This document shows positions 24,401 to 46,960 of a stretch of DNA of 64,000 nt, piece by piece (the stretch's first letter is position 1; the number at the start of each line of letters is the position of its first letter). Made by a program: the position numbers and the translations under genes. The stretch comes from a virus. The notes under the pieces are model-generated. The model made no database searches. It was given only the letters and a program-made list of their open reading frames with translations, and was not told the origin of the DNA. Location: the IMG/VR virus record IMGVR_UViG_3300037322_000296, positions 3,085-67,084 of that record; one strand, given 5' to 3'.

Positions 24401-27319
24401 AGTATTGCAGATGCTATAAAAGCAGGACTAGAATCAATTAGAAAAAGTAATTTAGATAAAAACGAAAAAAGTCAAGCAGTAAATGAACTTTTTGATGCTT
24501 TTGATAATACGGAAGGAAGTTCTAAGGCTTCAATGTCAATAAACGAAGATGGAAGATTACGTATTCCGAATTCATTGATTAGAGAAAAGGTAGAAAGCGG
24601 AATTGATAATATTGAAGATTTAACTACGGAAATACTAGCTGAGGTTGAAGAAATGTTTCCTGACCAAGAGTTTACAGAAAGAGAAGTTAGAGATGCAATT
24701 ACCGGATATGGAAAAACTTCTAACCCTAACTTAGACGATATACAAACCGAAGTTTCAGTAATGAAATCTTTAGGTAGAATTGCGTCAGGAATAGAAGATG
24801 CTAATGCAGGGAAAAGACCTTTGCGTTCAGGACAACAACGCAGAGAAACCACTCCTAAAGAACGTATGGAGATGAAGAAATTAAAGGCGTTGTTAAGAGA
24901 TTTACCTTTAGCCGCTGCTGATATTGAAAAGGCATATAAAACAGCCTTAGAAACGATTAAAAAACGTTTATCAAACGAAATTGAAGAAATAGACATTCAA
25001 CTTGCGAATGGAGAAAGAAGAAAAGGAGAAAAAAGCGTAATTGAATACGACAAAGAAGCAAATGAATTAAAAGCTATTCGTAATTCTAAAAGAGAACAAC
25101 TTGATGAATTAGTTGGAAAACCTCAATTAACAGATGAACAAAAAATCGAAAGATCAGAGAAACTTTTACAAAAGAGAATTGATGATTTACAAGAGAAAAT
25201 AGCTAAAGGCGAGATTGAGTATGCTAAAAAGCCAGAACAAGTAACTTCTAATAAATTAGAAGAAATGCGTAAGGTTAAAAAAGAATTAGACGATCAGGTT
25301 AATAAGATGCGTGAAGATTCAGGTATGTTAGAAACTAGATTAATTGAAATTGCAAAGAGAAACGCAAGAAAAAGACTTGAAACCTTAAAGAAAAAAATTG
25401 CCGATAAAGATTTTTCTAAAACAAAAAGAAAGCCAGGTCCAACAGATGTAGAATTAGATAAATTAAAATCACAAATATTAGAGCAAAAGGAATTATACGA
25501 TACAGAAAGTTATTTGATAGAATTAAAAAACAGAAGTAAAGCTAAAAAAATAGGAGATTTTATAAAAGATTTAATATCTGTTCCTAAAATTATGAGTTTT
25601 ACTGTCGATTTAAGTTTTGTGGGGATACAAAATGTAACTCAGGTTTATAAAATGAGTGCTAATTCTCTAGTAAGTTTAATAAAAACAGGTAAGCTAAAGG
25701 GCGAATTAAGGGGTTCTTTAATGAATATGGCTAAGGCTATGGCTAGTCCTGATTTTGAGCAGAAATATATGGATAAAGTTAAATCAGATCCAATGTACGC
25801 ATTAATGAAACAAGTGAAACTAGGTTTAGTAGAATCTCATTACAAAGAAGCCGCTAAAGCTGAAGTATTTCAAAATAACTTAATAAGCACTTTGTTTGAT
25901 TTATTTGGTAATTATGTAGCTAGACAAGGTTTTGAAAAGGCAGGAGATATAATTAAAAACTATGTAAATATAGTTGCTATTTTTGAAAGAGGACAAACCG
26001 TATTTGAAAATGAAATAAGAAGAAAACGTTTTGAAGAAGGCGTAAAGCTTTTAGAGATTCAAGGATATAATCCCATAGAAAATATTGATGAATACAAAAA
26101 AGTAGCTGCTGCGGTAAATACATTAACAGGTAGAGCAAATACAGGTAGTAAAATTGCATCAGGATTAAGAGAAATGAATGGAATATTATTTTCTTCTTTC
26201 TCAAATTGGGCAGCAGGAATTAATCAACTAAATCCTTATTGGTATTCTACATTAACTCCTACTGCAAGAAAAATGGCTTTAACAGACGTGGCGCATCATA
26301 TTATAGGCGCAGGATCTATAGTAACAATGGCTGCAATGTATGGATTAGGTCAATCGGGAGAAGAAGACGAAAAAGATAAAGTAACTGTTGAAACAGATTT
26401 AACTAGCTCAGATGCCGGAGTTATTAAAGTGGGTAACGTTAGGATTGATCCTTGGGCAGGTAAGAAAACAACGATTGTTGCTATGTCAAGATTATTTAAA
26501 GGAGGTAGGTTAGATAAATACGGAAACTTCAAAGAATACGGGAATAAATATGAAGATATACCATACATAGATTTACCTTTAGATTATGCAGGAAACAAAC
26601 TTGCTCCTGGAATTAGAGCTGTTTTAGAAAGAACTTTTTTAACTGAAAAAGTAGAGCTAAATAACGGAGAATCTTTCAGAGAAGACAAATACGGAACTGA
26701 TTTTAAAGAATCTGATTATTTAACTCCGCTTGTTTTTGATGCTTTTTCGGAAGTAAATAGAGAACAACCTGGACTACTTGGAAAAGCAGTAATGGCTATA
26801 TCTTGGACAGGATTAGTAAATACTAATGTGTATGGCGGATATAGAGAAGGTATAAAAGGAATGCGAGATGGTCGTATGGATATAGAAACTAAAGAAGAAC
26901 TTCAAAGACTAACCGACAAAGAAGGTGTTTTTAAAAATAAATTTGACAAATTGGCTAAGGATGCTTTTGAAGAAAAACTAAATCCTAAACAAGTTCAAGA
27001 TAGTCTTTACAAATTAGTACAAGGAGATCCTGAATTATACAATAAAAAAATGGAATCTTTAATAAATAAAGTAGATAAAGAGAACGTGAAAAAGTACGTT
27101 ACAGATGCTTTCTTTATAGCTTTAGAAAAAGAAAATAATCCTGAGAAACAAGCCATAATGTATTACTCTCAGTTTAAGGATGGAAAAGGATTAAGTAAAG
27201 AGGTACAGAAAGATATAGACAAAAACAGTATGTTAGTTAAGTTTAAAGTAACTCCTGAATTCTTGGATGCTTATAGAAAAATAATAAAATTAAAAAGTGA
27301 AAAGAAAGCCATCAATTAA
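18422..27319 (+). CDS. giant internal virion (polyvalent) protein with ParB/Srx-like and ART-like domains
   Basis: 2965 aa; PITVFEEGGKYTVLSGHHRFEAM (ParB-like) and KVYHGG...LFVSENEAQAKEY (ADP-ribosyltransferase-like). Confidence 0.8.
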   Translation: MLQPKPKFDPNQPYKVVKENKSETTGKPAFDPNEPFDVVKKKEDTTSTSTIQKENLALEQKSGSSDLPKMKSFDGLSKKDIASLKSNPNAPKLNIPKPIERTLTGTNAYLKKLSNNKPKILENYTKLTNSEVVDQAYIDQERQDIEADFNDTGFLNTVTTGLKNVANAIIAPTQAALTFGTSDPEPFFQTDPFSKEKLTVEKRITLEISEAKKLNLPKPIYNQEAINKMVKEEKLSNNIALKKESQVRSFIEDLDESDKDDLSNYKLIDALSLDLKEKDNLKKQGVISETISVTQEEILGLVSKSKKGNLTEDEKVNLQNYSASVKQNQTELLKLKEDFYSNDKKLGTAKENLDLLKRDYTFSRHFKNLEASVVDLFSNTSGVLDYGFKAGQNVVDNFDMPILSGAMKLGQRVFGESSIELKKDSENLRSKTAKPISVDGIKSLDDLGSWAGDNFTSQATVFALIATGLPGVATLGATSTGQKYQEMKAEMEAGTEIYDDSQLLSIPAIFGASEIASATVDLYLFKQAQRTYRAATSGERSMIADGFGKKLFNLVKAPAIEVPDEISTQFVQNAADIYLGGKTDKDLTDGFKDAGAAAVLFGLVIGTAPAIISKATNKYSTDTKLQKVNAEMIGLQAELDKFDISDANRKTITDQLNVAKEKSTSLLKKRVKDMSTLSNEQFLEINKIEKTQANIRDKAKSIKEDTSLNNDTKKQILGNLKEEFNATEQRRVDLLNRGANVQLERIDEKDRTRLKEKALKELTKEQNPDGTKEITIKDDEISKRAVQIYNQEVQVKNAKIKEAILKEEALKKEESEKIVPVQDVVIQPIELSVESNTIEDINEKGIEFGLDKPLRREFEEGEDGDKKYAEANIQHNKNVDEAISGLTQNGILIAEGAEYEVEVTSQGVTVRPKGQDYKNYYKGKRVSADTPFTKGFKFIPNEVKPQINTPAQQVEGLRADEQAELREAIPNAEQFVTDGKIDETKLENTEDKAKFNEIYDKYDKLITPLLEQQNEATPSKDTPANGNVRPRIDGLEQTPQQPTNTPSNVSETVDVGESEGDVEVVKKPVTLQEDAKPNALDFLDKNIFADFNKEGETPKAVKTPNKVVQKGISTSVTDLPIKDIVTDESRFQNREGLDEERVQNIVENFDKNKLLPITVFEEGGKYTVLSGHHRFEAMKRMGVNKIAVKIFDGTEAEAKEFAKDSNTLEKQETAIERASRYRELRAQGLSEKQITDMARQAHGSDAVKIVNMSRLEPNGKALETVKQFEKSTDTDTKNKVQAVAEWIGNVKSKHPDLSKVQENEMFDYLMDAYSTKKGAGKITNRTQFFDLANALITKLKEKGNFDENTTVNFKNSLGKSSIELEYDKALNDAKEAVKSAQKELDNKRADFLAKGATKEDFDRVLPSYESKLQTAIKNENDIRKDKGLLKEAVKDQVSLFDEIENNKLDEKPNAHREVQNILEGNSEETPSDKRSAEEEQQEVGKENLIKVYHGGSVKSIENLDKGEPLFVSENEAQAKEYTKENEGSVASFEINENTVASEETVREAIAELGLIPKEEGWEADELNIFELIDPKFDTSFTVEDINILFRELEKRGFESARFYDTNLKTLKQDIENIVIFNPQQTLSDKQKPLTKEQKKQVKFNAIDVAVGKINKALPKGGGDGYDGNINGVNQDAILDHIAEAIKKMVSAGYDIEEAITEMIKTVKNNFNFDLNIDDIKARLNQKTKQQGEEFERKSGKKSIANRIFDGDNKAMRKAVSKYSLDYEVENQNEAKENAENFVDEVGIQNAYNEVKKGNIKGAEKAFVYAKIIKELSEDINSFPESERSEIESIKEKMLEDIQQEFDQEARSSGRFIAALANVYNSSQGAYSFNKMVKDYKAKNKGKIDTETLKKFVELEANLKALEDKVKVLEAQKLVEEENQAFNNIVESIARGKKINTNQKITNKQKAKSLADKLRTFKTTNKGNLNAATPFSLAYDLAIEAAAKIIETSGSIADAIKAGLESIRKSNLDKNEKSQAVNELFDAFDNTEGSSKASMSINEDGRLRIPNSLIREKVESGIDNIEDLTTEILAEVEEMFPDQEFTEREVRDAITGYGKTSNPNLDDIQTEVSVMKSLGRIASGIEDANAGKRPLRSGQQRRETTPKERMEMKKLKALLRDLPLAAADIEKAYKTALETIKKRLSNEIEEIDIQLANGERRKGEKSVIEYDKEANELKAIRNSKREQLDELVGKPQLTDEQKIERSEKLLQKRIDDLQEKIAKGEIEYAKKPEQVTSNKLEEMRKVKKELDDQVNKMREDSGMLETRLIEIAKRNARKRLETLKKKIADKDFSKTKRKPGPTDVELDKLKSQILEQKELYDTESYLIELKNRSKAKKIGDFIKDLISVPKIMSFTVDLSFVGIQNVTQVYKMSANSLVSLIKTGKLKGELRGSLMNMAKAMASPDFEQKYMDKVKSDPMYALMKQVKLGLVESHYKEAAKAEVFQNNLISTLFDLFGNYVARQGFEKAGDIIKNYVNIVAIFERGQTVFENEIRRKRFEEGVKLLEIQGYNPIENIDEYKKVAAAVNTLTGRANTGSKIASGLREMNGILFSSFSNWAAGINQLNPYWYSTLTPTARKMALTDVAHHIIGAGSIVTMAAMYGLGQSGEEDEKDKVTVETDLTSSDAGVIKVGNVRIDPWAGKKTTIVAMSRLFKGGRLDKYGNFKEYGNKYEDIPYIDLPLDYAGNKLAPGIRAVLERTFLTEKVELNNGESFREDKYGTDFKESDYLTPLVFDAFSEVNREQPGLLGKAVMAISWTGLVNTNVYGGYREGIKGMRDGRMDIETKEELQRLTDKEGVFKNKFDKLAKDAFEEKLNPKQVQDSLYKLVQGDPELYNKKMESLINKVDKENVKKYVTDAFFIALEKENNPEKQAIMYYSQFKDGKGLSKEVQKDIDKNSMLVKFKVTPEFLDAYRKIIKLKSEKKAIN

Positions 27320-27332: not shown

Positions 27333-27710
27333 TTATTTCAACTTGTCTATAACCTCTTGTAAATCTGCAATAGAACTGCCCGTCAATTGCTTAATTTCTT
27401 TAATTATCAATAACAAGCTTTTCAATTTTAAAGAATCTCGAAGCGCATACCTTTCTTTTCTAATTAACATTCCGTCTATTTCTTCTTCTGTAACCCATAT
27501 AGCATCTAGCTCGTTTTTATCAATTAAAATTCCTTCCATTGGGTGTTGCTTGTACATATCCTCTAAAGGCACACGTTTTTTAGGTTTGTTAACTGTTTCT
27601 TCAATTAGCAAATTCTCTAAAAATACGTTAAGTAAAAACTTACGTTTCTTTTTTCTACTACTCAATGTTTTGATGTAATCTAATTGCTCTTCGTTGATTT
27701 GTAGTTTCAT
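27333..27710 (-). CDS. hypothetical protein
   Basis: 125-aa ORF ending at the terminator. Confidence 0.65.
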   Translation of the reverse strand: MKLQINEEQLDYIKTLSSRKKKRKFLLNVFLENLLIEETVNKPKKRVPLEDMYKQHPMEGILIDKNELDAIWVTEEEIDGMLIRKERYALRDSLKLKSLLLIIKEIKQLTGSSIADLQEVIDKLK

Positions 27711-27733: not shown

Positions 27734-27825
27734 TATCTATTTTTTTTAGCGCAATTGGTTAAATTTTTAATTGTTTGGTTATTAGTTATTTAGAAACGTA
27801 GGTTCGTATATATACAAGTTGTAGG
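27734..27825 (+). repeat. attI-like anchor, copy 1 (inverted repeat of 45619-45709)
   Basis: 92 bp, 7 substitutions and 1 gap versus reverse complement of 45619-45709; ends TATATATACAAG|TTGTAGG at first cassette. Confidence 0.9.
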
Positions 27826-27836
27826 TAATGCTGCGT

Positions 27837-28964
27837 TTATCTTAAATAAGACAATATGTAAGCTATAACATCGATTGTCCAGCCATTACCTAACATTTTG
27901 TATCGTTGTGTATCTGAAACGTGATTTGTATAGTTTTCAGGTACGGTTTGCAATCTTTCACATTCTATTGGTGTTAATCTTCTTATGTTGGTTTTTGTTT
28001 GTATTAAATCCATATCACTATGATTCCCACCACTATTTCCGCCAGCAGTATAACAACTCGCTTTTTGTTGATTTTTTTTAATATTTCCTTTTTTATCAAC
28101 TTTTATATAAGTATCGGCATTTCCCATTTTGTGAACTCTTGCACTTATGCAACTTGATTTATTTTCAGATTGTAATGTTTCAGTTGTATATTTATTGAAA
28201 ACTTCGTGATTTTTCAAACATTCTAACATTTTGCCACTCAAAAAATATTTATCAGCAACATCAATTTCTAAAATATCTTTCAATAAAATTCCTTTGTCTT
28301 TTGGTTGTGGAATTGTACATTCTAAATCGCCAAAAAATCCAATTTGTTCAACTCCAATATTTGTCCAGTACAAACGATTTCTATTTTGAGCAGAAAGCAA
28401 AGCACTATTAATTTGGATCGGATTAATTCCGATTGCTCTTGTTAATACTTTTTGCCACTTTTCGCCCATTACTACGTTTTCAAGTAAAAAGTAAATGTTT
28501 GGATTAGTTTCTCGCAATTCGTTTAGTATTCGGATATATTCCCAAAACAAATAAGATTGTCCTTCAAATTCAAAGTTTTGACTTTTCAACTCCAGGTAAT
28601 GCTCGATTGATAAAATTTCAAGTTCACATTTTGTTGCCATTCCTTTTCTTTTTCCAGCAAACGAAAAACTTTGACAAGGCGAACCTCCAGCAAGTATGTG
28701 TACAAATCCTAAATCTTTACCTTTTACGTTTCTTACATCGCCAATTTGTATCGTATTTGGAAAATTAGCCATTGTAACTTGTATTGGATATTTTTCTATT
28801 TCAGAAGCGTAATATTTTGTTGGTGTTTTACTAATTTTATTTAACGCTAATTGAAAGCAACTCATTCCATCGAACAAAGAAACTGCTACAAAATCCGCAC
28901 TACCTACAACACGTGTTTTGCAAGATTGTGAATCCTGTGGTTTAATAATATTTTCGTTTCGCAT
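27837..28964 (-). CDS. C5-cytosine DNA methyltransferase (cassette 1)
   Basis: SLFDG, GGSPCQ, LLENV, QNRNRLY, GNGW motifs. Confidence 0.93.
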   Translation of the reverse strand: MRNENIIKPQDSQSCKTRVVGSADFVAVSLFDGMSCFQLALNKISKTPTKYYASEIEKYPIQVTMANFPNTIQIGDVRNVKGKDLGFVHILAGGSPCQSFSFAGKRKGMATKCELEILSIEHYLELKSQNFEFEGQSYLFWEYIRILNELRETNPNIYFLLENVVMGEKWQKVLTRAIGINPIQINSALLSAQNRNRLYWTNIGVEQIGFFGDLECTIPQPKDKGILLKDILEIDVADKYFLSGKMLECLKNHEVFNKYTTETLQSENKSSCISARVHKMGNADTYIKVDKKGNIKKNQQKASCYTAGGNSGGNHSDMDLIQTKTNIRRLTPIECERLQTVPENYTNHVSDTQRYKMLGNGWTIDVIAYILSYLR

Positions 28965-29027
28965 TGTAATTTATTTTAAGTTGAAATTTTACTGTTACGA
29001 AGTTCACAACCTCGCAAAGCACCAAAC
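28911..29027. repeat. attC-like palindromic spacer A (117 bp)
   Basis: Arms gtgttttgcaagattgtgaa / ttcacaacctcgcaaagcac between AAC and GTT. Confidence 0.85.
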
Positions 29028-29040
29028 GTTAGGCGTAATG

Positions 29041-29994
29041 CTAAGACAACCCTCCGAAGATATGAGCAATCGTATCAACATTCCATCCATTTCCTATCAT
29101 TTTTCTAATTTGGTTATCACTTGCCACACCATCAAAGTAAGTTTCAGGCACGGTTTGTAATCTGCAATATTCTTTGATTGAGTAATAGCGGAAAGGTAAA
29201 TTGTTTTTGAATGCGTTAGGGTGTCGTCCTATTGGCATTGTGGTTAAAACATTGTCTTTTGCTACTGTGGTTAAACAGTTGCTTTTATCTCGGTTTGTGG
29301 CTCTCACTTCAAGGCATTGCGTTATTGGTATTTCTTTGTTGTAATCCTCTCGTTTACCTTTATCGTTCAATCTTCTACCCAAAATAGTAGCCTTATTCAA
29401 TCTTCGTCCTCTTATTGGACTTGGACCAATCATCCCAGTATCTTCTAAAATATCAATCAATTTTATTTGTTTGTCGGTTGGTTGTTCAATTGTAAAGTTT
29501 GCCCAATACAATCGTTCTCTATTTTGGGCTGATACCAAAGCACTATTTATCCTTACAGGTTCTACCCCTAAGTGTTCGGTTATCACTTGTTCAAATTCCT
29601 TTTTCATAACCACATTTTCCAAAAGCCAATATTTCGGTTTACATTCCTTAATCAGTCTTACAAATTCAAAAAATAATTTGCTTCGTGGGTCATCAAAATT
29701 CAATTGCTTCCCGCTAAAACTAAATCCTTGGCAAGGGCTTCCACCTATCAATAAATCTACTTTCGGTAAATCCGTGCCTTTAATATCGGTAACACTTCCA
29801 AGTTGTATCGTATTAGGGTAATTGTGTTGTGTTACTTTTATGGCGTGTTTATCAATCTCCGAAGCATAATATTTGCCATAGGAAATGGATACTCTGTTGA
29901 GTGCAATTTGTCCGCAACTCATACCATCGAATAACGAAAGCACTGCACCTAACACGGGTTTGGCAAAATTGCCGTTTTGTTCTTCTATCAACAT
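29041..29994 (-). CDS. C5-cytosine DNA methyltransferase (cassette 2)
   Basis: SLFDG, GGSPCQ, LLENV, QNRERLY, GNGW motifs. Confidence 0.93.
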   Translation of the reverse strand: MLIEEQNGNFAKPVLGAVLSLFDGMSCGQIALNRVSISYGKYYASEIDKHAIKVTQHNYPNTIQLGSVTDIKGTDLPKVDLLIGGSPCQGFSFSGKQLNFDDPRSKLFFEFVRLIKECKPKYWLLENVVMKKEFEQVITEHLGVEPVRINSALVSAQNRERLYWANFTIEQPTDKQIKLIDILEDTGMIGPSPIRGRRLNKATILGRRLNDKGKREDYNKEIPITQCLEVRATNRDKSNCLTTVAKDNVLTTMPIGRHPNAFKNNLPFRYYSIKEYCRLQTVPETYFDGVASDNQIRKMIGNGWNVDTIAHIFGGLS

Positions 29995-30065
29995 TCGTTC
30001 TTAATTATTAAGTTTTGTATTTCAATTGAGCTTTCGGTTCGGCAACTTCGCCAAGCCCGAAACCG
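29954..30065. repeat. attC-like palindromic spacer B (112 bp)
   Basis: Arms cgggtttggcaaaattgccg / cggcaacttcgccaagcccg. Confidence 0.85.
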
Positions 30066-30077
30066 TTATGCCTCATT

Positions 30078-31046
30078 TTAGGAGGACTTACAGAAACAAT
30101 CAGTTTCAAATTCAAATAACTCTTGTTGTTGTTTTGAAAGTTCGTGTAAATCTTCCGCTTTTGTGAATGGTCTTTGTGCCATTTCTACAAGTTCCTCAAT
30201 ACTTTTATTTGTTCTTAAATCAAATCTCGGTACATCTTCAAAAGCATAAGTTTCTTCCATTCTTTGCCACCATTCCGCAATACTTGGATTATCTTTTATA
30301 ATTGTTAATCGCTTTTTTAATGACTTTTTAAAGCATAAATCACAATTTCCCTCGTAATCTTTTAAACCTAAATCAAAACTTTGTTTTTCCCAAAACTCAC
30401 GAACCATTCTTTGATTCATTGGCAATTCATCGCACAAAGGGTAAATTATATTTTCTTCTTTAGCGTGTATTGATTTTCGGTGCGCCTCGTCTGCTCTAAT
30501 GCCTATTGCACGAATTATATTCATATTTTTAAAATTATCTCTTAAATATGCGTCAATAGGCCTTTGTTTTAACTCTCTTGTGCAATTTGAAGCCATGTTG
30601 TTTGGTAATGGGTATTTTTTAAGCATTGCTTCAAATGGTTCTCCGTTTCTTGATGCAGTTTCAAAATTTACTATTGTGTATGTCGTACCTGTTTTAAAAA
30701 ACCTTACGTCTCTATCAAATTCTCTTAAACCAATAGCGTAATTTTCTCCAAGCATTTCTTTAAAGTCTTCCAGTCCATTTATATCGCATTTCATTCTTCC
30801 GAATCCTGGATAAACAAAATCGTAATTAACGCTTGCTTCAAGCCATATTAAATTTAATCCAAACTCTTTATCACATTTATCGGCAAAAATTAAACTCTTT
30901 TCTAATTCTCTACCTGTATTTAAAAACACATAAATAACGTTTGGATATTTATGTGGATTTTCTTTTAAATGCTTTGCTAAAATTGCAGATGTTCTACCAC
31001 TTGAAAACATACATACATACAATTTATTATTCAATGATTTTTCCAT
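30078..31046 (-). CDS. PAPS-reductase-family (PP-loop) protein (cassette 3)
   Basis: FSSGRTS, NTGRE, CTRELK, IGIRADE, GNCDLCF. Confidence 0.85.
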   Translation of the reverse strand: MEKSLNNKLYVCMFSSGRTSAILAKHLKENPHKYPNVIYVFLNTGRELEKSLIFADKCDKEFGLNLIWLEASVNYDFVYPGFGRMKCDINGLEDFKEMLGENYAIGLREFDRDVRFFKTGTTYTIVNFETASRNGEPFEAMLKKYPLPNNMASNCTRELKQRPIDAYLRDNFKNMNIIRAIGIRADEAHRKSIHAKEENIIYPLCDELPMNQRMVREFWEKQSFDLGLKDYEGNCDLCFKKSLKKRLTIIKDNPSIAEWWQRMEETYAFEDVPRFDLRTNKSIEELVEMAQRPFTKAEDLHELSKQQQELFEFETDCFCKSS

Positions 31047-31197
31047 AAGTATCTATTTCAAATTTTAATTCAAATTCACATTTTATTCCAAAATTTTGAG
31101 TGGAACAAGGATATTTAGATTTACAAACATTACAATAAAAACGAGGCATAACATCGGTTTGCACGCATTGCTCGTTTTCGTTTATATCGTTTTTCAT
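31027..31197 (-). CDS. 56-aa Cys-rich peptide starting inside spacer C (not in ORF track)
   Basis: MKNDINENEQCVQTDVMPRFYCNVCKSKYPCSTQNFGIKCEFELKFEIDTYGKIIE*, overlaps PAPS-reductase start by 20 nt. Confidence 0.55.
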   Translation of the reverse strand: MKNDINENEQCVQTDVMPRFYCNVCKSKYPCSTQNFGIKCEFELKFEIDTYGKIIE

Positions 31198-31262
31198 TTA
31201 CTTTTAGTTTTTAATAATTAAAATTCGTTTTCATAAGTCGCAACGACGTGCAAGCCGCAGCC
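31153..31262. repeat. attC-like palindromic spacer C (110 bp)
   Basis: Arms cggtttgcacgcattgc / gcaacgacgtgcaagccg (one extra base). Confidence 0.85.
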
Positions 31263-31275
31263 GTTAGCAAACAAC

Positions 31276-31725
31276 TTAGTTTGATTCTGCCAATAGTTCA
31301 GGATTTTCAAAAATGTTTCCAATTACATTACAAACTAGATTAATGCAGTTAATTCTAAAAGTCATTTCTTGTTGATTGTATTTGGGTAGTTTATTATTAT
31401 AAACAAAATTACATACGAACATTCCTTCTTTAAACCTCATTATTCCTTGAGCATTAAATCCATTATGTAAAATATCTCCTTCGTAAATATCAATGCCGTT
31501 TTTATCTTTTAATCCTGTAAACTGCATTATGTTTATTTCTCTTGAAAATTGGTCATTTAAAGGTGCATATTCTGAAAAAGCAAAGTCACTACCATAAAGC
31601 ATTTTTGGTTCAGAACAACCAGTAAGATGTTCGTCAAAAACCCTAAAAAATCTAAATTTGAAAAGTCGATTTGCTAACAACGGTTTGAACGCATTGCTTA
31701 AATCTGTGGAATTACTTTTTTTCAT
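31276..31725 (-). CDS. YopX family protein (cassette 4)
   Basis: MQFTGLKDKNGIDIYEGDIL and VIGNIFENPELL. Confidence 0.9.
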   Translation of the reverse strand: MKKSNSTDLSNAFKPLLANRLFKFRFFRVFDEHLTGCSEPKMLYGSDFAFSEYAPLNDQFSREINIMQFTGLKDKNGIDIYEGDILHNGFNAQGIMRFKEGMFVCNFVYNNKLPKYNQQEMTFRINCINLVCNVIGNIFENPELLAESN

Positions 31726-31790
31726 GTTCGTTTGTTTTTAATTATTAAATTTTGTTTTCATAAGCAAGCAACGACGTGCAAGCCGCAGCC
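31679..31790. repeat. attC-like palindromic spacer D (112 bp)
   Basis: Arms cggtttgaacgcattgctt / aagcaacgacgtgcaagccg; last 23 bp identical to spacer C. Confidence 0.85.
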
Positions 31791-31803
31791 GTTACAAGAC
31801 AGT

Positions 31804-32286
31804 TTAGGACAACTGAATAAAACGACCTTTTATGTTGCAGTTCTTTAATATTTCAGCATTGTTTTTTCCGTATGCTATTAATACACTTGGTGCGCCAGCC
31901 GAAGATCCTTTTACTCCTGTAACATGGTAAAAACTTAATCGACCTTTTATAAACAATATCGCATCAGCTTTTTCCCAAACGCACTTAAAAAACATTTTAG
32001 TTTCAGTTCTTGCAAAAGTCAAAGCAATACAATTTCCATGCATTGCAGCTTTTTCTAAAAAATGTTCAGCATATTTTCCATAAGGTGGATTACACCAAAC
32101 CCTACCAAACCAATTTTGCATTAATCCGTTATCATTTATATTGAAATGATTTGTCGCAGTATCCCATGGTCTATTTATCGGAGAACAAGGATCTAAGTCA
32201 AAATCCCCCAATGATTTTATTAGTTCTGGAGGCGTTAACCATTCGTCTTTTCCTGTTGCTGTATTTCCTTCAAAAGTTACATTCAT
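31804..32286 (-). CDS. phage N6-adenine DNA methyltransferase (cassette 5)
   Basis: DEWLTP, LDPCS, WCNPPY, ARTET; probable ATG at 32286 (MNVTFEG). Confidence 0.88.
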   Translation of the reverse strand: MNVTFEGNTATGKDEWLTPPELIKSLGDFDLDPCSPINRPWDTATNHFNINDNGLMQNWFGRVWCNPPYGKYAEHFLEKAAMHGNCIALTFARTETKMFFKCVWEKADAILFIKGRLSFYHVTGVKGSSAGAPSVLIAYGKNNAEILKNCNIKGRFIQLS

Positions 32287-32317
32287 AATTTGTGTGAATA
32301 AAAAACCGTCTTGTAAC

Positions 32318-32436
32318 ACTCGTTTTGTGCTATTACGGCAGTTGTGGTTAATTCATATTTGTTTTGCACGTAGGCGTTTATTTTTAATTGAAAATCTAGT
32401 TTTCGCTAATCCGTAACAGACACAAAGCGAGGGAAC
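32318..32436. repeat. attC-like palindromic spacer E (119 bp)
   Basis: Arms ctcgttttgtgctattacgg / ccgtaacagacacaaagcgag (one extra base). Confidence 0.85.
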
Positions 32437-32437
32437 G

Positions 32438-32875
32438 TTAGTGGTCAGTTAAAGAACTAATCTGCAATTCTTCACTATTCCGAAAAAAGAATATATTTTG
32501 CAAGTGGTGTAGCCCTTTGATTTCAACTCTTGAAACGTATTCAATCCATAGTCCATTGATGAAATTAATTTGCATTCCAAATAAATTAAAACTTGGAAAA
32601 TCTTTTAAATCTAACTTTACAGCATTTAATTTTAAAAGCAATTCTTCTGAAATTGGTATCGATTCAAATTCAGAGTGTTCGGTATAATCAAACGTAATTT
32701 CATCAATGTATAAGTATTCAGAATCTACACCAGTAACTGTACTATATTTTCTTTCTCCGTAAATTAATTTTACAATATTTCCAATACGTATTTCGGTTGG
32801 TAAAATAGCCGAACCGCTGACAGCATTTTGGCAAGATTGCTGATTTTGTGGTTCATTAATGTTTTCGTTTAACAC
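32438..32875 (-). CDS. hypothetical phage protein (cassette 6), paralog of 35466-35852
   Basis: EIRIGNIVK...IPISEELLLKL...LHHLQNIFF; TAA stop lies inside the cassette end TAAC. Confidence 0.8.
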   Translation of the reverse strand: MLNENINEPQNQQSCQNAVSGSAILPTEIRIGNIVKLIYGERKYSTVTGVDSEYLYIDEITFDYTEHSEFESIPISEELLLKLNAVKLDLKDFPSFNLFGMQINFINGLWIEYVSRVEIKGLHHLQNIFFFRNSEELQISSLTDH

Positions 32876-32894
32876 AATAAGTAATTTTAAATTT

Positions 32895-33617
32895 TTATTT
32901 ATTAACTTTTATTTTATCGGCAAAGTATATTTGACCTTTGCCTGTAATTTTGGTAGTTTTAGTTGTAAATGTTTCTAAGCCACTTCCAATAGTCCTAGTT
33001 ACCACTTCAAATAGTCCAGAAGCAACATGGTTTTGATATGGTTCATTATCTTTGTTTAAGTATTTTTTATCTCTAAACCATTCAAAAACTCTATTTTGAC
33101 CTATTTCAAAACCGCTATCACATAAATCCTTAGCAAATTGACGAACTAATATTGAGTTTGAACTGCCAATGACACTTTCTGCAAAAATAACCTTAGATTT
33201 ATCCTGTTCTATCTTATCAGTCGCTTCTAGTAATAAATTAGATACTCTAATGTTCTCAACCAACAATACTCTTTCTGAATCAATTACTTCCAGATGTGTT
33301 CTTGGTCTTAGGACTGCTTTTTCACAAGCGATAAAATATCTTCTAACTTCTTTTCCTTTTGGAACTTTAGAAAGCATCGCTAATTCCTTAGCGCAATCAA
33401 TAGTTAATGCATAGTCAATTCTATTAGTGCCTCCAATTCCGTTATCGTGGTTAACGTATGCCTTAATCGCCTGATAATCAATGTTCTCATCAAATTGAAC
33501 TTTATTATCATCAAACCATTGTGTAAAGTGATTTTTAATATCAAGAGCTTCGTAAAGATTTCTTGCGGAAACAACTTGTTCTCCGTTTCTTTCTGTAATT
33601 TTTATTAATTGTTCCAT
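32895..33617 (-). CDS. phage antirepressor (AntA + KilAC domains)
   Basis: VVSARNLYEAL...AKELAM...VRRYFI and DKSKVIFAESV...TKITGKGQIYF. Confidence 0.9.
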   Translation of the reverse strand: MEQLIKITERNGEQVVSARNLYEALDIKNHFTQWFDDNKVQFDENIDYQAIKAYVNHDNGIGGTNRIDYALTIDCAKELAMLSKVPKGKEVRRYFIACEKAVLRPRTHLEVIDSERVLLVENIRVSNLLLEATDKIEQDKSKVIFAESVIGSSNSILVRQFAKDLCDSGFEIGQNRVFEWFRDKKYLNKDNEPYQNHVASGLFEVVTRTIGSGLETFTTKTTKITGKGQIYFADKIKVNK

Positions 33618-34002: not shown

Positions 34003-35046
34003 TTATTTTTTATATAACTTGTAATAATGCTTTCTACATAATTCTTTTGAGTGATTTTTATTTTCACAACCATCAACAGAACACTTTATTACTGAACTTA
34101 AATATTCATCTGAATCTAAAATACCCCAGTTAGGGATAAAAGAAGATGCTTTCTTAATCTCATTATATCTTTTTTTATCTATTAAAGACATTTTTTCGTT
34201 TGGATAATATTTTGCAAATCTTTTTAATTTAGTTTTTGATTTATCATCCATCCAACCTTTAATTTCTATCCAAAATTGAGATCCATCAATATTTGTTATT
34301 AATAAATCAGGTTTATAACTTCTAACACCTCTTTTTATTAATTCAAACCAAAATGTTTTAGGTTCATATTCCCATTCCTTTATTTCATTTTTAGTTTTTA
34401 AAAACTCATAATAAGCTATGATGTTAGCTTCCCAAGAAGACCTAACAAAAACAGTTTTACCACCAATAGTTATTGTTCCTTGTTTTGCTCTAGAATAATT
34501 ACTAGATAACACTCCATTTGCTCTATTTTTACTCATTATGTTAGATTGGTTTTGTTTATGTTCTTCTGAATTAAAAAAGTGATTTTTATTTTCCCATGCT
34601 TTTTTAGTTGATTCTGAAATCTTTTTTTTAGTTTCTTGACTATGTTTACCTCCTAAAAATCCTTTTGGATGCCCTTTTTCTTTTAACCTTTGTTTTGTTT
34701 TTTTTGATAAATTATCTTTAGCTTTATCTGGTATTTTTGAATTTCTATTTGTTAACCCTAATTTTTTAGCTTTTCTACTAATGAAAGGGATTGTTCTATT
34801 CATAATTAAAGCTAATTCTTTTAAGTTCCAATCATCTTTGTATTTTTCATAATTTTCTATCAAAAATTTTTCATCTTCTTCTGTGAAATAATTTATTTTT
34901 TTACATAAATTATGTTTGCTTAAAACAAAATGTATATATTGACCTGTAAGGTTAAAGAAATGACCAACCTTCCATACGTTTTTTAATTCAATATATTTTT
35001 TATTTATTTCAGACAAATGTATTCCTTTATAAAAAATATCTTCCAT
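34003..35046 (-). CDS. putative freestanding homing endonuclease (NUMOD3-like motifs + PD-(D/E)XK nuclease)
   Basis: GGKHSQETKKKISES; RSSWEAN, YEP, YKPDLL, IEIKG; C-terminal C-x4-C...C-x2-H; probable start MEDIF after own -7 motif at 35057-35064. Confidence 0.7.
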   Translation of the reverse strand: MEDIFYKGIHLSEINKKYIELKNVWKVGHFFNLTGQYIHFVLSKHNLCKKINYFTEEDEKFLIENYEKYKDDWNLKELALIMNRTIPFISRKAKKLGLTNRNSKIPDKAKDNLSKKTKQRLKEKGHPKGFLGGKHSQETKKKISESTKKAWENKNHFFNSEEHKQNQSNIMSKNRANGVLSSNYSRAKQGTITIGGKTVFVRSSWEANIIAYYEFLKTKNEIKEWEYEPKTFWFELIKRGVRSYKPDLLITNIDGSQFWIEIKGWMDDKSKTKLKRFAKYYPNEKMSLIDKKRYNEIKKASSFIPNWGILDSDEYLSSVIKCSVDGCENKNHSKELCRKHYYKLYKK

Positions 35047-35116
35047 TTTTTTTTGACAAAGATAATACATTTAAGAGTATAGAACAAAGTATTTTTGCTG
35101 ATAATTCCATTTATTT

Positions 35117-43651: not shown

Positions 43652-43700
43652 CGTATTGAATAAAACCGCGGTTATAGGCAGTATGGGAATTTAAAAATAA

Positions 43701-44429
43701 ATGAAAATGAAATATATGGGAAGTAAGGCAAGGTTTGCAAAAGAACTATTGCCAATAATATTAAAAGATAGAAAAGAAAATCAATACTATGTAGAGCCTT
43801 TTGTTGGTGGTGCAAATATGATTGACAAAGTAAATGGGTTGAGGATTGCTGGAGATAGTAATAAATATCTAATTGCATTATGGAATGGTTTAAAAACTAA
43901 TAGCGATTTACTTATGGAAATATCAAAAGACACTTTTTCAAAAGCAAGAACTGAATACAATGACAAAACTAATATTGAATTTACAGATTTTGAATTAGGT
44001 TGGATTGGTTTTATGGGAGGGTTTAATGGTAGATTTTATGGTGGGGGATATTCAGGCAAGCATAGAAATAGAGATTATGTAAATGAGCAAATCCGAAATA
44101 CATTAAAGCAATTAGAAGCCATAAAAGATATTGATTTTAATAGTTGTAATTACGACCAATTAGAAATACCAAACGGAAGTATTATTTATTGCGATATTCC
44201 TTATCAAGGTACAAAAGAATATGATACAAAGGATAGATTTAATCATACAGAATTTTGGAGCTGGTGTAGGGAAAAATCAAAAAATAATACTGTCTATGTT
44301 TCAGAATATAATGCACCAGATGATTTTGAGTGTGTTTGGGAAAAGAAAGTAAACGTATCAATTAGACCAACAAAAACCTTACAACAAACAGAACGATTAT
44401 TTAGGCTAAAATCGACTATTGAAAACTAA
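43701..44429 (+). CDS. DNA adenine methyltransferase, D12/Dam class (cassette 7)
   Basis: KYMGSK, YVEPFVGG, IYCDIPY, VSEY. Confidence 0.9.
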   Translation: MKMKYMGSKARFAKELLPIILKDRKENQYYVEPFVGGANMIDKVNGLRIAGDSNKYLIALWNGLKTNSDLLMEISKDTFSKARTEYNDKTNIEFTDFELGWIGFMGGFNGRFYGGGYSGKHRNRDYVNEQIRNTLKQLEAIKDIDFNSCNYDQLEIPNGSIIYCDIPYQGTKEYDTKDRFNHTEFWSWCREKSKNNTVYVSEYNAPDDFECVWEKKVNVSIRPTKTLQQTERLFRLKSTIEN

Positions 44430-44448
44430 TAATAATATTGCCTATAAC

Positions 44449-44567
44449 GTTCCCTCGCTTGCTCGTCGTTGCGGATTTCGTAACGATAAATTTTCAACTT
44501 AAAAATAAATATGATGCGAAACGAAAATATGATTAAACCAATAAACTCACAATCTTGCAAAACACGT
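44449..44567. repeat. attC-like spacer F (119 bp), apparently chimeric
   Basis: Most of it resembles reverse complement of spacer A (…tcacaatcttgcaaaacacgt identical); first 12 nt match reverse complement of spacer E end. Confidence 0.8.
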
Positions 44568-44634
44568 GTTGTAGGCATACCACTTAACACTTTTAAAAAT
44601 AACTTAAATTAAAAATAACTTAAATTAAATAAAA

Positions 44635-45600
44635 ATGAAAAAATATCCAAGTATCGAGCAGTTTAGAAATGTTATTAGAACTGTAAAAACAAATCACGAT
44701 TATCAAGGTAAAGATGAAAATGGAGAAAGTATTTATTCTCACAATTCTAATTACCCAACTTTAAAATTCAAAGGAACTGTAAAGCTTCACGGAACAAATG
44801 CTGGAGTTGTAAAATACGCTGATGGAAAAATAGAATTTCAATCAAGAGAAAGAGTTTTAACTTTAGATTCAGATAATTCTGGATTTATGAATAAAATGCA
44901 CTTATTAGATTTTGAAAAATATTTTTCTCAATTAACATTTACAGAAAGTTGTGCGATTTATGGAGAATGGTGTGGTGGAAACGTTCAAAAAGGAGTTGCT
45001 ATAAACGGACTTGAAAAAATGTTTGTGATTTTTGGAGTAAAAACAGATGATGAATGGATTGAAATTCCTGTAACATTTATAGATGAAGAAAATAAAATAT
45101 TCAATATTAATCAATTCAAAACGTATGAAGTTGAAATAGATTTTAATAATCCAGAATTAATACAAAATAAACTTATTGAATTGACTATTGAAGTTGAAAA
45201 TGAATGTCCTGTTGGTAAATATTTTGGGAATATTGGTATTGGAGAAGGAATTGTATTTACTTCTTTAAAGTACCCTGATTTAATATTCAAATCAAAAGGA
45301 GAAAAACATTCTGTATCAAAAGTAAAAGTGTTAAATGAAATTGATGTTGTAGCAATGGAAAATATTAATGAATTTATTGAACTATCTGTAACAGAAAATA
45401 GATTGAAACAAGGATTACAAGTTTTAAAAGAAAATGGAATATTGATAGAGACTAAATCAATTGGAGAGTTTTTAAGATGGATTGTAACTGATGTTTTAAA
45501 AGAAGAAAAAGACACTTTAGAAACAAGTAGATTAGATGAGAAAAAAGTGAAAGGAGCAATTGTAAACAAAGCAAGAGTTTGGTTTTTAAACAATTTTTAG
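44635..45600 (+). CDS. RNA ligase, Rnl2-like (cassette 8)
   Basis: Motif I KLHGTN, QSRER, YGEW, GEGIV, FKSK. Confidence 0.88.
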   Translation: MKKYPSIEQFRNVIRTVKTNHDYQGKDENGESIYSHNSNYPTLKFKGTVKLHGTNAGVVKYADGKIEFQSRERVLTLDSDNSGFMNKMHLLDFEKYFSQLTFTESCAIYGEWCGGNVQKGVAINGLEKMFVIFGVKTDDEWIEIPVTFIDEENKIFNINQFKTYEVEIDFNNPELIQNKLIELTIEVENECPVGKYFGNIGIGEGIVFTSLKYPDLIFKSKGEKHSVSKVKVLNEIDVVAMENINEFIELSVTENRLKQGLQVLKENGILIETKSIGEFLRWIVTDVLKEEKDTLETSRLDEKKVKGAIVNKARVWFLNNF

Positions 45601-45618
45601 CGATAATATGGGCGGTTG

Positions 45619-45709
45619 CCTACAACTTGTATATATAAGAACCTACATTTGTAAAATACTTATAACCAAACAATTAAAAATTGAACCAATTGCGCTAAAA
45701 AAATAGATA
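45619..45709 (-). repeat. attI-like anchor, copy 2 (inverted repeat of 27734-27825)
   Basis: See copy 1; ends at the base immediately before the recombinase ATG (45710). Confidence 0.9.
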
Positions 45710-46960
45710 ATGAATATAATTTATAATTTAAAAATAGGAAAAAAGAGCAATCAATTATTTTTGCGGTTGTATAAATCTAAGCTTGATATTAGTTGTAGTA
45801 TTGGGATTGTTTTAGATACTAATGATTGGAATCAAGAATTACAATTAGCAAATTCTTCAATTATTAATCAGAAGTTGTCAGAACTTAAGTCTAACGTTTT
45901 AAGAAGCTATAACGAAATGTTTGTGCAAGGTTTTATAATTGATAAAAACGCTCTTAAAAATATAATATCTGATTGTTTTAATAGGCCAACAAAAGAAATT
46001 TCACAAGCAAATAATGACATGTATGTTTATTATTCAGATTTTGCTCAAAATTGGCTTGATAAAGATTCGGATCAATGGAAAACTTCTGCTAGAAAAACAA
46101 TGGTTAAGTCCTTGAAAAAACAATACCAGGACTTTGTTAATTTGTTTTTAGAATTTGAAAAAACATTGGAATCGAAACTTATTTTAAAGGATATGACTAT
46201 TGATGATTTTTACGGATTTGCTAATTATATGGAAGAAGAAAGCTACAATAATAGCACGATAAAGAGAACGCTATCTAGGATGAAGTTTTTTTGTCAAAGA
46301 GCAAACGAGCAAGGGATAAAGATTTCCTCTGCTTATAATCAAAGAGTTTTTGTAGAAAATGATAGTGATGAAATTGAAGGTGTATATTTGAATGAGGTGG
46401 AAGTTTTAAAAGTTTATAATACTGATTTTAGTTTTGATCCAAAATTGCAAACGGCAAAAGAAAATTTGTTGATAGGTATTTTTAGCGGACTTCGTTGTAG
46501 TGATTACCTAACAAATTTAGATTTAAAAAATATCAAAGATGATTTTATTACAATAACCACTCAAAAAACTAAAACGAAAGTCGTGATTCCGGTACATGAC
46601 ATAATAAAAGAAATTATTAAAAGTAATTTTGGTCAATTACCTCCGAAAATGAATGCTTTTGAATTTGGAAAGTCTATAAAGATAATTGGGCAAATTTGCG
46701 GATTTGATGAATTAGTATTTGGAAAAAAATGGGATGCTGATAAAAAAAGAAAAATAGTTGGTTATTTCAAACGTTACGAACTATTTACTACACACATTGC
46801 GAGAAGGAGTATGGCTAGTAATTTGTATGGTAAAATTCCTAATGATAGTATTTTATCGATATTGGGATGGCAGAATGAATCCATGTTATTTCATTATGTT
46901 AAAACCTCAAAGAAAGAACACGCACAAAAATTAAACGATTATTGGCAAACTAAAAACTAA
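45710..46960 (+). CDS. tyrosine recombinase / phage integrase
   Basis: SGLRCSD (R), TQKT (K), HIARRS (HxxR), LGW, FHY (Y); N-terminal arm-binding and SAM-like regions. Confidence 0.92.
   Translation: MNIIYNLKIGKKSNQLFLRLYKSKLDISCSIGIVLDTNDWNQELQLANSSIINQKLSELKSNVLRSYNEMFVQGFIIDKNALKNIISDCFNRPTKEISQANNDMYVYYSDFAQNWLDKDSDQWKTSARKTMVKSLKKQYQDFVNLFLEFEKTLESKLILKDMTIDDFYGFANYMEEESYNNSTIKRTLSRMKFFCQRANEQGIKISSAYNQRVFVENDSDEIEGVYLNEVEVLKVYNTDFSFDPKLQTAKENLLIGIFSGLRCSDYLTNLDLKNIKDDFITITTQKTKTKVVIPVHDIIKEIIKSNFGQLPPKMNAFEFGKSIKIIGQICGFDELVFGKKWDADKKRKIVGYFKRYELFTTHIARRSMASNLYGKIPNDSILSILGWQNESMLFHYVKTSKKEHAQKLNDYWQTKN

Follow-up and report, generated by a model that had tools for sequence, protein, structure and literature searches.

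Integrons are viewed as a bacterial system for gene storage and shuffling. They hold single-gene cassettes in tandem, every cassette having one site of ~60-130 nt that is an imperfect palindrome, and at one end of the array a conserved non-palindromic terminal site lies beside a tyrosine recombinase of the Xer/IntI clade. The sites have a conserved ...YAAC / GTTR... core with crossover at G|TT, complementary own ends, an unpaired central spacer and an extrahelical base, and the two strands differ in how well they fold. Mosaic 'hyperplastic' regions of phage genomes are also well known. In T4-type phages conserved intergenic stem-loops, the PeSL motifs, flank small accessory genes in such regions, and the available text of two reports describes gene-sized insertions, deletions and replacements among relatives that are thought to arise by homologous recombination between the repeated motifs (PMC2839356, PMC4122927). 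According to the accessible part of another study, attC clusters occur in virulent and temperate phages, often with orphan DNA methylases; a screen of 10,705 phage genomes with classical attC models yielded 17 CALINs (attC clusters without an integrase), in E. coli IntI1 recombined attI1 with one attC from the Flavobacteriia phage P12002L (a Polaribacter phage), and the sites were regarded as fragments of bacterial integrons (PMC9892861, Front Microbiol 2023).

We analysed a window of 64,000 nt (the whole stretch, positions 3,085 to 67,084 of IMG/VR record IMGVR_UViG_3300037322_000296) from a 67-kb phage of a Flavobacterium-type host. We found that its accessory genes, including DNA methylases, are organised as cassettes (Table 1), and we consider it likely that this phage carries mobile gene cassettes in an integron-like array. 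Six gene modules, all oriented along the minus strand, make up the main array (27.7-32.9 kb). Five hairpin elements of ~120 nt (TAACG...TGTTA) and one decayed half-site separate them. A second array of two cassettes lies at 43.67-45.63 kb. The initial annotation had described six tandem modules with inverted ends, and these were recovered; five sets of its coordinates stood, while module 3 starts at 30065 rather than 30066. It had written them on the plus strand, which is the antisense strand since all main-array genes are on the minus strand. The spacers measured 117, 111-112, 110, 112 and 119 nt, in agreement with the 110-119 bp first given, and each has a 17-21-bp imperfect hairpin, as had been described. 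The single extra base reported for spacers C, D and E corresponds to an insertion in the alignment of the 5' arm. The sixth module fits less well as a bracketed cassette, as its weak ends (7/9) indicate decay and the site upstream of it is the 3' half of an element.

Table 1. Cassettes, terminal anchors and recombinase gene in the window. CM, covariance model. Main-array end matches are ungapped counts over the first 9-15 nt, written on the plus strand of the initial annotation; rc, reverse complement.
Feature	Coordinates	Strand	Gene and best match	Element and module ends
Terminal anchor, main array	27734..27817	-		After last cassette; sense ...CAAC|TTGTATATATACGAACC...
Cassette 1	27818..29031	-	C5 cytosine DNA methylase, ORF 27837-28964; PF00145 E 2e-37; ATG within hairpin loop	Element spA 28907-29031, CM 78.6 bits; module 27818-28910, ends 13/14
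Cassette 2	29028..30068	-	Second C5 DNA methylase, ORF 29041-29994; PF00145 E 1e-38; ATG within loop	Element spB 29950-30068, CM 117 bits; module 29028-29953, ends 12/15
Cassette 3	30065..31266	-	PAPS-reductase-like, ORF 30078-31046; phrog_424 E 4e-46	Element spC 31149-31266, CM 73.7 bits; module 30065-31152, ends 14/15, G/A at position 11
Cassette 4	31263..31794	-	YopX family, ORF 31276-31725; PF09643 E 2e-19; ATG within loop	Element spD 31675-31794, CM 74.4 bits; module 31263-31678, ends 9/9, bulged T, then 4 matches
Cassette 5	31791..32440	-	Dam-type N6-adenine methylase, ORF end 31804, start probably ATG 32286; PF05869 E 4e-13	Element spE 32314-32440, CM 73.1 bits; module 31791-32317, ends 14/15
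Cassette 6 (decayed)	32437..32894	-	ORF 32438-32875; phrog_10066 (unknown function)	3' half-element only, 32822-32894, no CM match, resembles spA-type elements; module 32437-32821, ends 7/9
Second array, first cassette module	43671..44448	+	D12-class N6-adenine methylase, ORF 43701-44429; PF02086 E 3e-13	No recognisable hairpin element upstream; ends GTTATAGGCAGTAT / rc GTTATAGGCAATAT, canonical G/A at position 11
Second array, second cassette	44445..45628	+	RNA ligase, ORF 44635-45600; PF09414 E 5e-11	Element 44445-44571; module 44568-45628, ends GTTGTAGGCA...TGCCTACAAC, 10/10
Terminal anchor, second copy	45629..45709	+		Extends to ATG of integrase gene
Tyrosine recombinase, 416 aa	45710..46960	+	PF00589 E 8e-7, PF13102; phrog_1 integrase	

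On the coding strand each element consists of TAACG, an unpaired spacer of 4-5 nt, an imperfect hairpin of ~16-20 bp with an AT-rich loop, and TGTTA. Next come ~11 bases specific to the cassette and then the gene, and at or just past the stop codon the same bases recur as their complement. We found that a 24-base pattern from the window matches 114 viral stretches and at least 120 genome stretches, nearly all from Flavobacterium or Bacteroidota, where by our estimate far below one match is expected by chance. A covariance model of the family recovered 389 non-overlapping copies of the hairpin element in arrays of up to 16, with one orientation per locus apart from two exceptions. TAACG begins 367 of the 389 copies and TGTTA ends 378. 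In the window the model scored the five main-array spacers at 73-117 bits (E 2e-22 to 5e-13) and the plus-strand copy in the second array at 50 bits (E 4e-8), and the next-best match was the antisense of spacer B (E 0.015). A search of Rfam returned no family for the region. Compensatory changes were seen in 16 of 21 stem pairs, and cells were paired in 96.1% of cases versus 70.3% in shuffled and 34-47% in slid controls, both in an alignment fitted to the model; an independent MAFFT/RNAalifold run gave compensatory changes at 9 of 21 pairs. When folded as DNA, the window spacers were always more stable on the minus strand (z-scores -1.0 to -3.4, versus -0.1 to -2.0 on the plus strand).

The two ends of a cassette match each other and not those of the neighbour, as first annotated, and this proved true across the family. 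Among 274 modules in other contigs the median own-end match was 10 nt (up to one mismatch allowed per run), versus 5 nt in shuffled pairings. When 247 distinct modules were classified, 133 paired without gaps, 26 had a one-base bulge and 88 fell in neither strict class. Position 11 is G/A, a G.T wobble, in 132 of the 133 ungapped and 25 of the 26 bulged modules, and the bulged base is T in 23 of the latter. A generic 15-mer end scan of the window alone was weakly above chance (4 pairs versus 0-3 in shuffles), and what was distinctive was the position of the pairs and a mismatch that was always G/A at position 11. Rebuilding the sites from own ends made them 4.7-11.4 kcal/mol more stable than in situ, and the sense strand was 3.6-7.5 kcal/mol more stable than the antisense.

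Cassette 2 recurs over ~1041 nt in three viral contigs with unrelated flanks (L091, 96% identity; L073, 96%; L092, 92%). The homologous segment runs precisely from GTTA to ...CGTTA, so that its junctions lie at G|TT, and the 96% identity suggests recent movement. In L073 the cassette adjoins a terminal site and not a hairpin, which cannot be explained by homologous exchange between hairpins. Cassette 1 has an 84-87% match in L142. We found that when two contigs share the downstream flank and differ upstream (82 pairs, 27 groups) the element identity is 0.90, and when they share the upstream flank and differ downstream (19 pairs, 13 groups) it is 0.62, equal to the background of 0.64; the pairs are not all mutually independent. 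In the 27 and 13 independent groups, it is precisely at the TAACG edge that identity between contigs shifts from background to about 95-100% or the reverse. These comparisons indicate that the hairpin moves together with its downstream gene, and that cassettes are discrete units bounded at G|TT with complementary own ends. The initial proposal of independently mobile cassettes is therefore supported by the exact-edge breakpoints together with the family-wide matching of own ends. PeSL-type exchange within a repeated motif is ruled against by homology that ends at the TAACG edge and by the copy that abuts a non-hairpin site. The hairpin cassettes differ from PeSL loci in having single breakpoints at an exact edge, private complementary ends and a linked site-specific recombinase.

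This recombinase is a small protein (267-293 aa) of the Xer/IntI clade and is the first gene past the last cassette in all four viral records that hold one. Among 120 bacterial stretches, 13 carried a homolog, which in every case lay at the array's downstream end in convergent orientation, and the cassette genes point toward the terminal site and the recombinase. The small recombinase scored 145 bits against the integron integrase model TIGR02249, under the 265-bit cut-off, and was below every NCBIfam cut-off, integron integrase included. It has 34 residues where VchIntIA (2a3v) has 82, that is ~48 fewer at the IntI-specific domain. We searched the phage genome and found no IntI and no small Xer-like recombinase. 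Its sole tyrosine recombinase is the 416-aa integrase, which is directly downstream of the second array and co-oriented with it, matches no integron integrase (TIGR02249) and shows no similarity to the small array recombinases; its homologs in two other records are not adjacent to arrays. The anchor after the main array, which is followed by a 125-aa ORF (27333-27710), is ~91% identical over 75 nt to the anchor preceding the integrase gene, and its first ~20 nt fit the terminal-site motif found after the last cassettes of other contigs. A tyrosine recombinase of any kind was found in 6 of 50 element-bearing viral records and in 4 of the 18 near-complete ones, which indicates that most phage arrays lack an enzyme of their own. 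Since this phage lacks the small Xer-like enzyme, the acting enzyme probably comes from the host or a co-infecting element. A less likely candidate is the 416-aa integrase of the phage itself, located where other arrays have the small recombinase.

The cassette system shares with integrons each of the features listed at the outset, and the closest type is the sedentary chromosomal integron with long uniform attC sites. Its sites have the imperfect hairpin, the RYYYAAC / GTTRRRY cores, the central spacer and the extrahelical base of attC sites. However, the gene here lies on what integron nomenclature calls the bottom strand, so that the site is upstream of its gene, usually with a start codon and leader peptide. 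The R-box stem, with its fixed G.T wobble, measures 15 bp versus 7 bp in integrons, the recombinase of related arrays lacks the IntI-specific domain and stands at the end to which the genes point, and this phage lacks even that enzyme. No IntI with the additional domain lies beside an array in the genome, the ORFs do not lie upstream of an attC, and the genes do not point away from an attI/intI end. The integron signature that had been read from the cassette ends is thus integron-like; without IntI and with reversed cassettes this is not an integron. A CALIN is defined by two or more neighbouring attC sites with no IntI close by. Provided that their structure is enough to class the present sites as attC-type, the five within 3.5 kb and the one at 44.4 kb, in a genome with no IntI, constitute a CALIN.

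The initial annotation had considered an array in a phage unusual and possibly undescribed, but attC clusters in phages have a precedent and the kind is therefore partly known, at least from the available text of that report (PMC9892861). The same text describes neither the size of the present family, the start codon in the hairpin, the 15-nt ends, the terminal site nor the Xer-like recombinase. In P12002L itself we found short-loop TAACG...GTTA elements at the methylase genes, with complementary module ends around them, and the covariance model of the present family gave weak matches. These elements are presumably the published attC sites.

In the reading that we favour, a tyrosine recombinase would cut TAAC|G (G|TTA on the other strand), and the excised single-stranded circle would juxtapose the cassette's own two ends. 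The joined ends would lengthen the hairpin by a 15-bp 'R-box' stem with its fixed G.T wobble and, often, one extrahelical T. Insertion would then occur at another such site or at the conserved terminal site that closes an array downstream. The hairpin would double as a translation start, with an ATG in the loop of most cassettes and a leader of ~15-20 residues translated through the 3' arm into the gene. The cargo, mostly orphan DNA methylases, probably shields phage DNA from host restriction.

A less probable alternative, though one we take seriously, is that the site-specific movement is past and that the orphan cluster is now a frozen relic serving this phage as a compact anti-restriction operon. 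The missing cognate recombinase, the decay of cassette 6 and of the first site of each array, and two extra mismatches in the end pairing of cassette 2 would all fit a relic. However, five sites retain strong covariance scores, cassette 2 is nearly identical to copies in other contexts, and the hosts of this clade carry the recombinase in their chromosomes.

Translation-start regions of Bacteroidota are A-rich, and so are the loops of these hairpins. Of 274 modules, 155 have an ATG in the loop, and 94 of these also have their stop codon directly against the TAAC that follows. The strand that folds more stably, with its wobble pairs, is the mRNA strand, so that the wobble pairs and loop ATG fit an RNA structure equally well. 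The elements might thus act at the RNA level on a polycistronic early transcript, for instance as platforms for translation start, as processing sites or as stabilisers, with shuffling arising only by homologous recombination between the repeats, as the available text proposes for PeSL motifs (PMC2839356, PMC4122927). The absence of a recombinase from most phage records is consistent with this, but we consider it unlikely. Homology breaks at the TAACG edge and not within the conserved arms, one copy of a cassette adjoins a non-hairpin terminal site, and a dedicated recombinase is found at array ends. An RNA structure also offers no role for cassette-specific 15-nt complementarity spanning 150-1200 nt of translated RNA. 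Elements differ in the frame in which the 3' arm is read, which suggests that conservation is at the nucleic-acid level and does not stem from a shared peptide.

The ends of IS200/IS605 transposons have subterminal imperfect hairpins, an extrahelical T and a short conserved cleavage word, to which these elements bear a likeness. Movement by an HUH/Y1 transposase of this kind, or by another hairpin-guided nuclease, is nevertheless very improbable, as the Y1 transposase (TnpA) model PF01797 gave no match anywhere in the genome at E up to 1, the array-end gene is a tyrosine recombinase, the TAAC/GTTA core fits the integron R-box consensus and, in the accessible part of the phage attC study, an integron integrase recombined a related phage's site (PMC9892861).

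Going beyond the integron-like array itself, we give roughly even weight to a broader reading, in which Bacteroidota and their phages have their own gene-capture system parallel to integrons. Its enzyme would be a minimal Xer-like recombinase, devoid of the IntI domain, that acts on folded attC-like hairpins, and the hairpin before each gene would supply a start codon and leader peptide, so that a captured coding piece could be expressed at once. Array phages without an enzyme would borrow the host recombinase during infection to exchange methylases and other counter-defence genes with chromosomal arrays of the host and with other phages. The two inverted anchors of this phage would be its insertion sites.

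The cassette design is common to many related phages and Flavobacterium chromosomes. If our interpretation is correct, it would provide a site-specific mechanism for the mosaic regions of phage genomes and a route along which cassettes could move from phages to host chromosomes or the reverse. Phages of a major aquatic and gut phylum would then keep accessory and anti-restriction genes in cassettes of the integron kind, with a different enzyme and reversed gene orientation. It would also be a natural test of which integron parts are essential, as an Xer-like enzyme appears able to deal with folded sites despite lacking the IntI domain. Current integron finders would be missing a large family, with hundreds of sites in the small sample searched, and the hairpin recombination site as a portable translation start would become a testable idea.

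Individual elements of the main array also differ in detail. The loop ATG of cassette 3 starts a different, 56-aa ORF (31027-31197) and that of cassette 5 meets a stop after two codons. The arms of spC and spD are near-identical to each other, and the half-element of cassette 6 abuts an Ant antirepressor gene (32895-33617; PF03374/PF08346).

The viral record is 67,084 bp long, is rated complete by CheckV and is covered almost entirely by the window. Its genes include those for a large terminase, a portal, virion proteins, an integrase and a chaperonin resembling GroEL. The six minus-strand genes of the main array (27.7–32.9 kb) encode two C5 cytosine methylases, a PAPS-reductase-like protein, YopX, a Dam-type N6 methylase and an unknown protein. 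We confirmed that these genes form an array of modules with inverted ends. The ends match at 13/14, 12/15, 14/15, 9/9 and 14/15 positions in modules 1–5 and, weakly, at 7/9 in module 6. The module ends listed in the initial annotation are correct, apart from the start of module 3, which is at 30065 and not 30066. The five spacers between the modules (spA–spE, 110–119 nt) are homologous to one another and, as had been proposed, each folds into an imperfect hairpin of 17–21 bp. When both strands were folded the minus (coding) strand was the more stable for every one of the five. We refer to this TAACG...TGTTA hairpin as the element, and to an element together with the module after it as a cassette.

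In cassettes 1, 2 and 4 the downstream gene has its start codon inside the hairpin loop, and translation runs via the 3′ arm into the gene. The decayed cassette 6 has its listed GTG start within the surviving half-site, and the frame also passes through the 3′ arm, while the genes of cassettes 3 and 5 start within the module. The Pfam domain begins shortly past the 5′ inverted end, and the stop codon either overlaps the 3′ inverted end or immediately precedes it. The loop ATG of cassette 3 opens a separate ORF of 56 aa, which shares 20 nt, in a different frame, with the beginning of the PAPS-reductase-like gene; this ORF may be a frameshifted leader or an additional small gene. No tRNAs were found. 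A whole-region search of deposited phages found no close relatives, only methylase-gene similarity of 65–74%, and a search of viral contigs gave no confirmed relatives of the flanking 125-aa protein or of the 416-aa integrase.

We used a search pattern of 24 specified bases, derived from three of the five spacers. It matched 114 stretches of viral contigs and at least 120 bacterial genome stretches, nearly all of the latter Flavobacterium or other Bacteroidota among the matches listed. A covariance model (CM) was then built from an alignment of 36 diverse copies, the consensus of which has 21 pairs with compensatory changes in 9. With the element alignment, nhmmer recovered just 7 copies in viral contig L028, where the CM found 15 (E ≤0.001) or 17 (E ≤0.01), and the CM was used instead. 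The five window spacers score 73–117 bits, and the CM located a sixth copy in the window. Across the 114 viral stretches and the window we found 389 non-overlapping copies, in arrays of up to 16 and in one orientation per locus, two loci excepted. TAACG is present at one end of 367/389 copies and TGTTA at the other end of 378/389. In an alignment of 122 distinct matches, which was fitted to the CM and so biases pairing and covariation counts towards structure, 96.1% of cells were paired, compared with 70.3% in shuffles and 34–47% with slid partners; compensatory changes were seen at 16 of the 21 pairs, and two G.U pairs were near-invariant. Rfam holds no family matching the spacers, the only hit being a chance miRNA match (E 0.99). 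Chance palindromes are ruled out by the CM E-values and covariation, a shared leader peptide as the cause of conservation by the differing reading frames of the 3′ arm, and transposon terminal repeats by ends that are specific to the individual module. Very long arrays are present in some viral contigs (L124, the contig of record G020, at 20.8–28.9 kb; L009; L112); they have 15–17 sites and occupy a quarter of a 33-kb genome.

The initial annotation had claimed that the two ends of one cassette match each other rather than those of a neighbor. This held for the 274 modules that lie between consecutive elements, where own-end complementarity had a median of 10 nt versus 5 nt in shuffled pairings. 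The pairing is a stem of ~15 nt, GTTA-N5-N-G-N4 against its complement. An ungapped class comprises 133 of 247 distinct modules, and in 132 of these the 5′ copy has G where the other copy has A, which on the coding strand is a fixed G.T wobble. In a bulge class (26/247) position 10 carries a single additional base, T in 23 of these modules, and 25 of the 26 have the same wobble; the remaining 88/247 lie outside both strict classes. In the window, modules 1, 3 and 5 are ungapped, module 4 falls in the bulge class, and modules 2 and 6 have extra mismatches. Scanning the window generically for 15-nt inverted ends gave a result only weakly above shuffles. We found that rebuilding a site from the two ends of its own cassette made it 4.7–11.4 kcal/mol more stable than the in-array site, and that the coding strand was 3.6–7.5 kcal/mol more stable than its complement.

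Coordinates of array components and neighboring features in the window
Feature	Position	Strand	Remarks
2965-aa ORF	18422-27319	+	ends 14 nt short of the 125-aa minus-strand ORF beyond the main-array anchor
Main-array anchor	27734-27817	-	terminal sequence after the last cassette
Cassette 2	29028-30068	-	
56-aa ORF of cassette 3	31027-31197	-	cysteine-rich
355-aa protein	34003-35070	-	weak Holliday-junction-resolvase / DUF1064 and HNH-like matches; 1.1 kb upstream of main array
Second-array cassette	43671-44448	+	D12 N6-methylase; found by same end grammar
Sixth element copy	44445-44571	+	
Second-array cassette	44568-45628	+	RNA ligase; found by same end grammar
Second-array anchor	45629-45709	+	terminal sequence after the last cassette
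Integrase	45710-46960		416 aa, phage-type tyrosine recombinase
DUF805b RNA motif (Rfam)	57485-57518	+	43.6 bits vs gathering score 35.6; directly after ORF 56690-57487
GroEL-like chaperonin	58599-60146	+	phrog_5725, E 2e-102

Clustering placed the 274 modules in 260 nucleotide families, which left few families for comparison between contexts, and therefore flank-based pair statistics were used. Where one module was found in two contexts, as shown for three families, homology began at the TAAC of the upstream element and stopped at the TAAC(G) of the next element downstream. Element identity was 0.90 when the downstream flank was shared and the upstream flank was not (82 pairs, 27 connected groups). 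When the upstream flank alone was shared it was 0.62 (19 pairs, 13 groups), against a background of 0.64. Position by position, identity changes exactly at TAACG. This indicates that the unit of exchange is the hairpin element, the gene that follows and the 3′ end repeat of that gene. Cassette 2 recurs in three other viral contigs at 96, 96 and 92% identity over ~1041 nt; the flanks of the copies are unrelated and the edges of homology are exactly GTTA and ...CGTTA. The initial annotation had itself proposed comparing related phages for junctions at G|TT, and the outcome supports its integron-like reading. In contig L073 the copy of cassette 2 adjoins a non-hairpin terminal site.

The 4–6 nt following TAACG are a local hot spot adjoining the inferred crossover. 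Identity at element positions +6 to +11 is just 52–85%, with four of the six at 52–61%, and it stays low between copies that are ~90% identical in the remaining element and downstream gene. Only 2 of the 274 viral modules have cassettes in common with the 120 bacterial stretches listed, too few to support phage–host exchange. In the bacterial-genome collection, L142, a 2-kb contig assigned to a Coxiellaceae MAG, carries an element and matches window cassette 1 at 84–87%; the contig probably represents a fragment of phage that was misbinned.

Read on the antisense strand, the + strand of the initial annotation, the unit TTA-X...gene(rc)...X′-TAAC-hairpin-G corresponds exactly to an integron cassette whose crossover is at G|TT. 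In this comparison the R box is matched by the 15-bp stem, the central spacer by the 4–5 unpaired nt and the L box by the lower stem of the hairpin. As is established for attC (PMC9892861, PMC6393395, PMC3458562), it is the "bottom" strand of the phage site that folds better. However, the phage cassette gene is on the bottom strand, and thus the site precedes its gene and carries the gene start. In 155/274 cases an ATG within the element opens a frame that continues into the module; in 94 of these 155 the ORF ends −15 to +4 nt from the next TAAC, and in 42 the TAA of TAAC itself serves as the stop codon. Since there is no IntI, cassette orientation is reversed and the start codon is in the site, the phage array is not a strict member of the integron family. 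PMC9668308 treats the IntI-specific domain as defining and reports integrons in Bacteroidota; PMC4889954 defines CALINs and notes integrons with an inverted integrase. The hairpin may also have a role at the RNA level, which could coexist with recombination. Part of the window (share ≤0.49) is contained in 24 DNA sequencing runs, and no RNA run is listed as containing it. The recombination reaction itself, including single-strand folding and circles, is inferred, as is the enzyme acting for this phage.

Clusters of attC sites in phages have a published precedent. According to PMC9892861 (Front Microbiol 2023), IntegronFinder and HattCI screening of 10,705 phage genomes gave 3 integrons, one In0 and 17 CALINs. 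Polaribacter phage P12002L has a CALIN with two methylase genes, and in E. coli IntI1 recombined an attC site of this CALIN with attI1, through the bottom strand only (PMC9892861). The window array agrees with the concept of a phage CALIN as published. In the P12002L methylase region (NC_028924) we found short-loop TAACG...GTTA and CAACG...GTTG elements, including elements at about 29.97–30.08, 30.85–30.97 and 32.22–32.28 kb, which may or may not be the published attC sites. Its module ends are complementary in the same manner as those of the window family, and it scores only weakly with the CM, which was trained on long-loop copies. In a literature search with thin coverage of subscription journals, PMC9892861 alone was relevant, and the accessible texts gave no account of the reversed layout, the 15-nt ends or the Xer-like enzyme of this family. 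The array belongs to a much larger, distinct and apparently undescribed variant.

The genome encodes one tyrosine recombinase, the phage-type integrase, for which no integron-integrase match was found, and no Y1 transposase. The integrase gene directly follows the second array after the 81-nt anchor. A copy of this anchor in inverted orientation (~91% identity) lies ~18 kb away, where the main array ends. Integrase action on the two inverted anchors could flip the entire early region, or one of the anchors may be the phage attachment site. Across contigs a common motif follows the last cassette, TAAC|T..(A/T)ATATA(C/T)G(C/A)AAC-like, and both window anchors fit it (TTGTATATATA[A/C]GAACC). Homologs of the window integrase in two other records do not adjoin arrays: that of L009 (43% identity) is not beside an array, and the same is true of the large integrase of L121.

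A PF00589 match is present in just 6/50 element-bearing viral records, and in 4/18 of those that are at least 90% complete. The records with cassette 2 copies are fragments without a recombinase match, and as fragments they carry no information on this point. Four viral records encode a small recombinase of 267–293 aa (mutual identity 36–56%), always as the first gene beyond the last cassette and co-oriented with it. Homologs with 35–52% identity are present in 13 of the 120 bacterial stretches listed, each at the downstream end of an array and convergent with it; L141, L149 and L158 hold such homologs. The small recombinase is nearest to archaeal XerA, XerC/D and IntI, under all curated cut-offs, and over the segment that includes the IntI-specific domain it has 34 residues, compared with 82 in VchIntIA. 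No significant similarity was found between the window integrase and this Xer-like enzyme. In G020, two tyrosine recombinases are encoded back to back at the array end.
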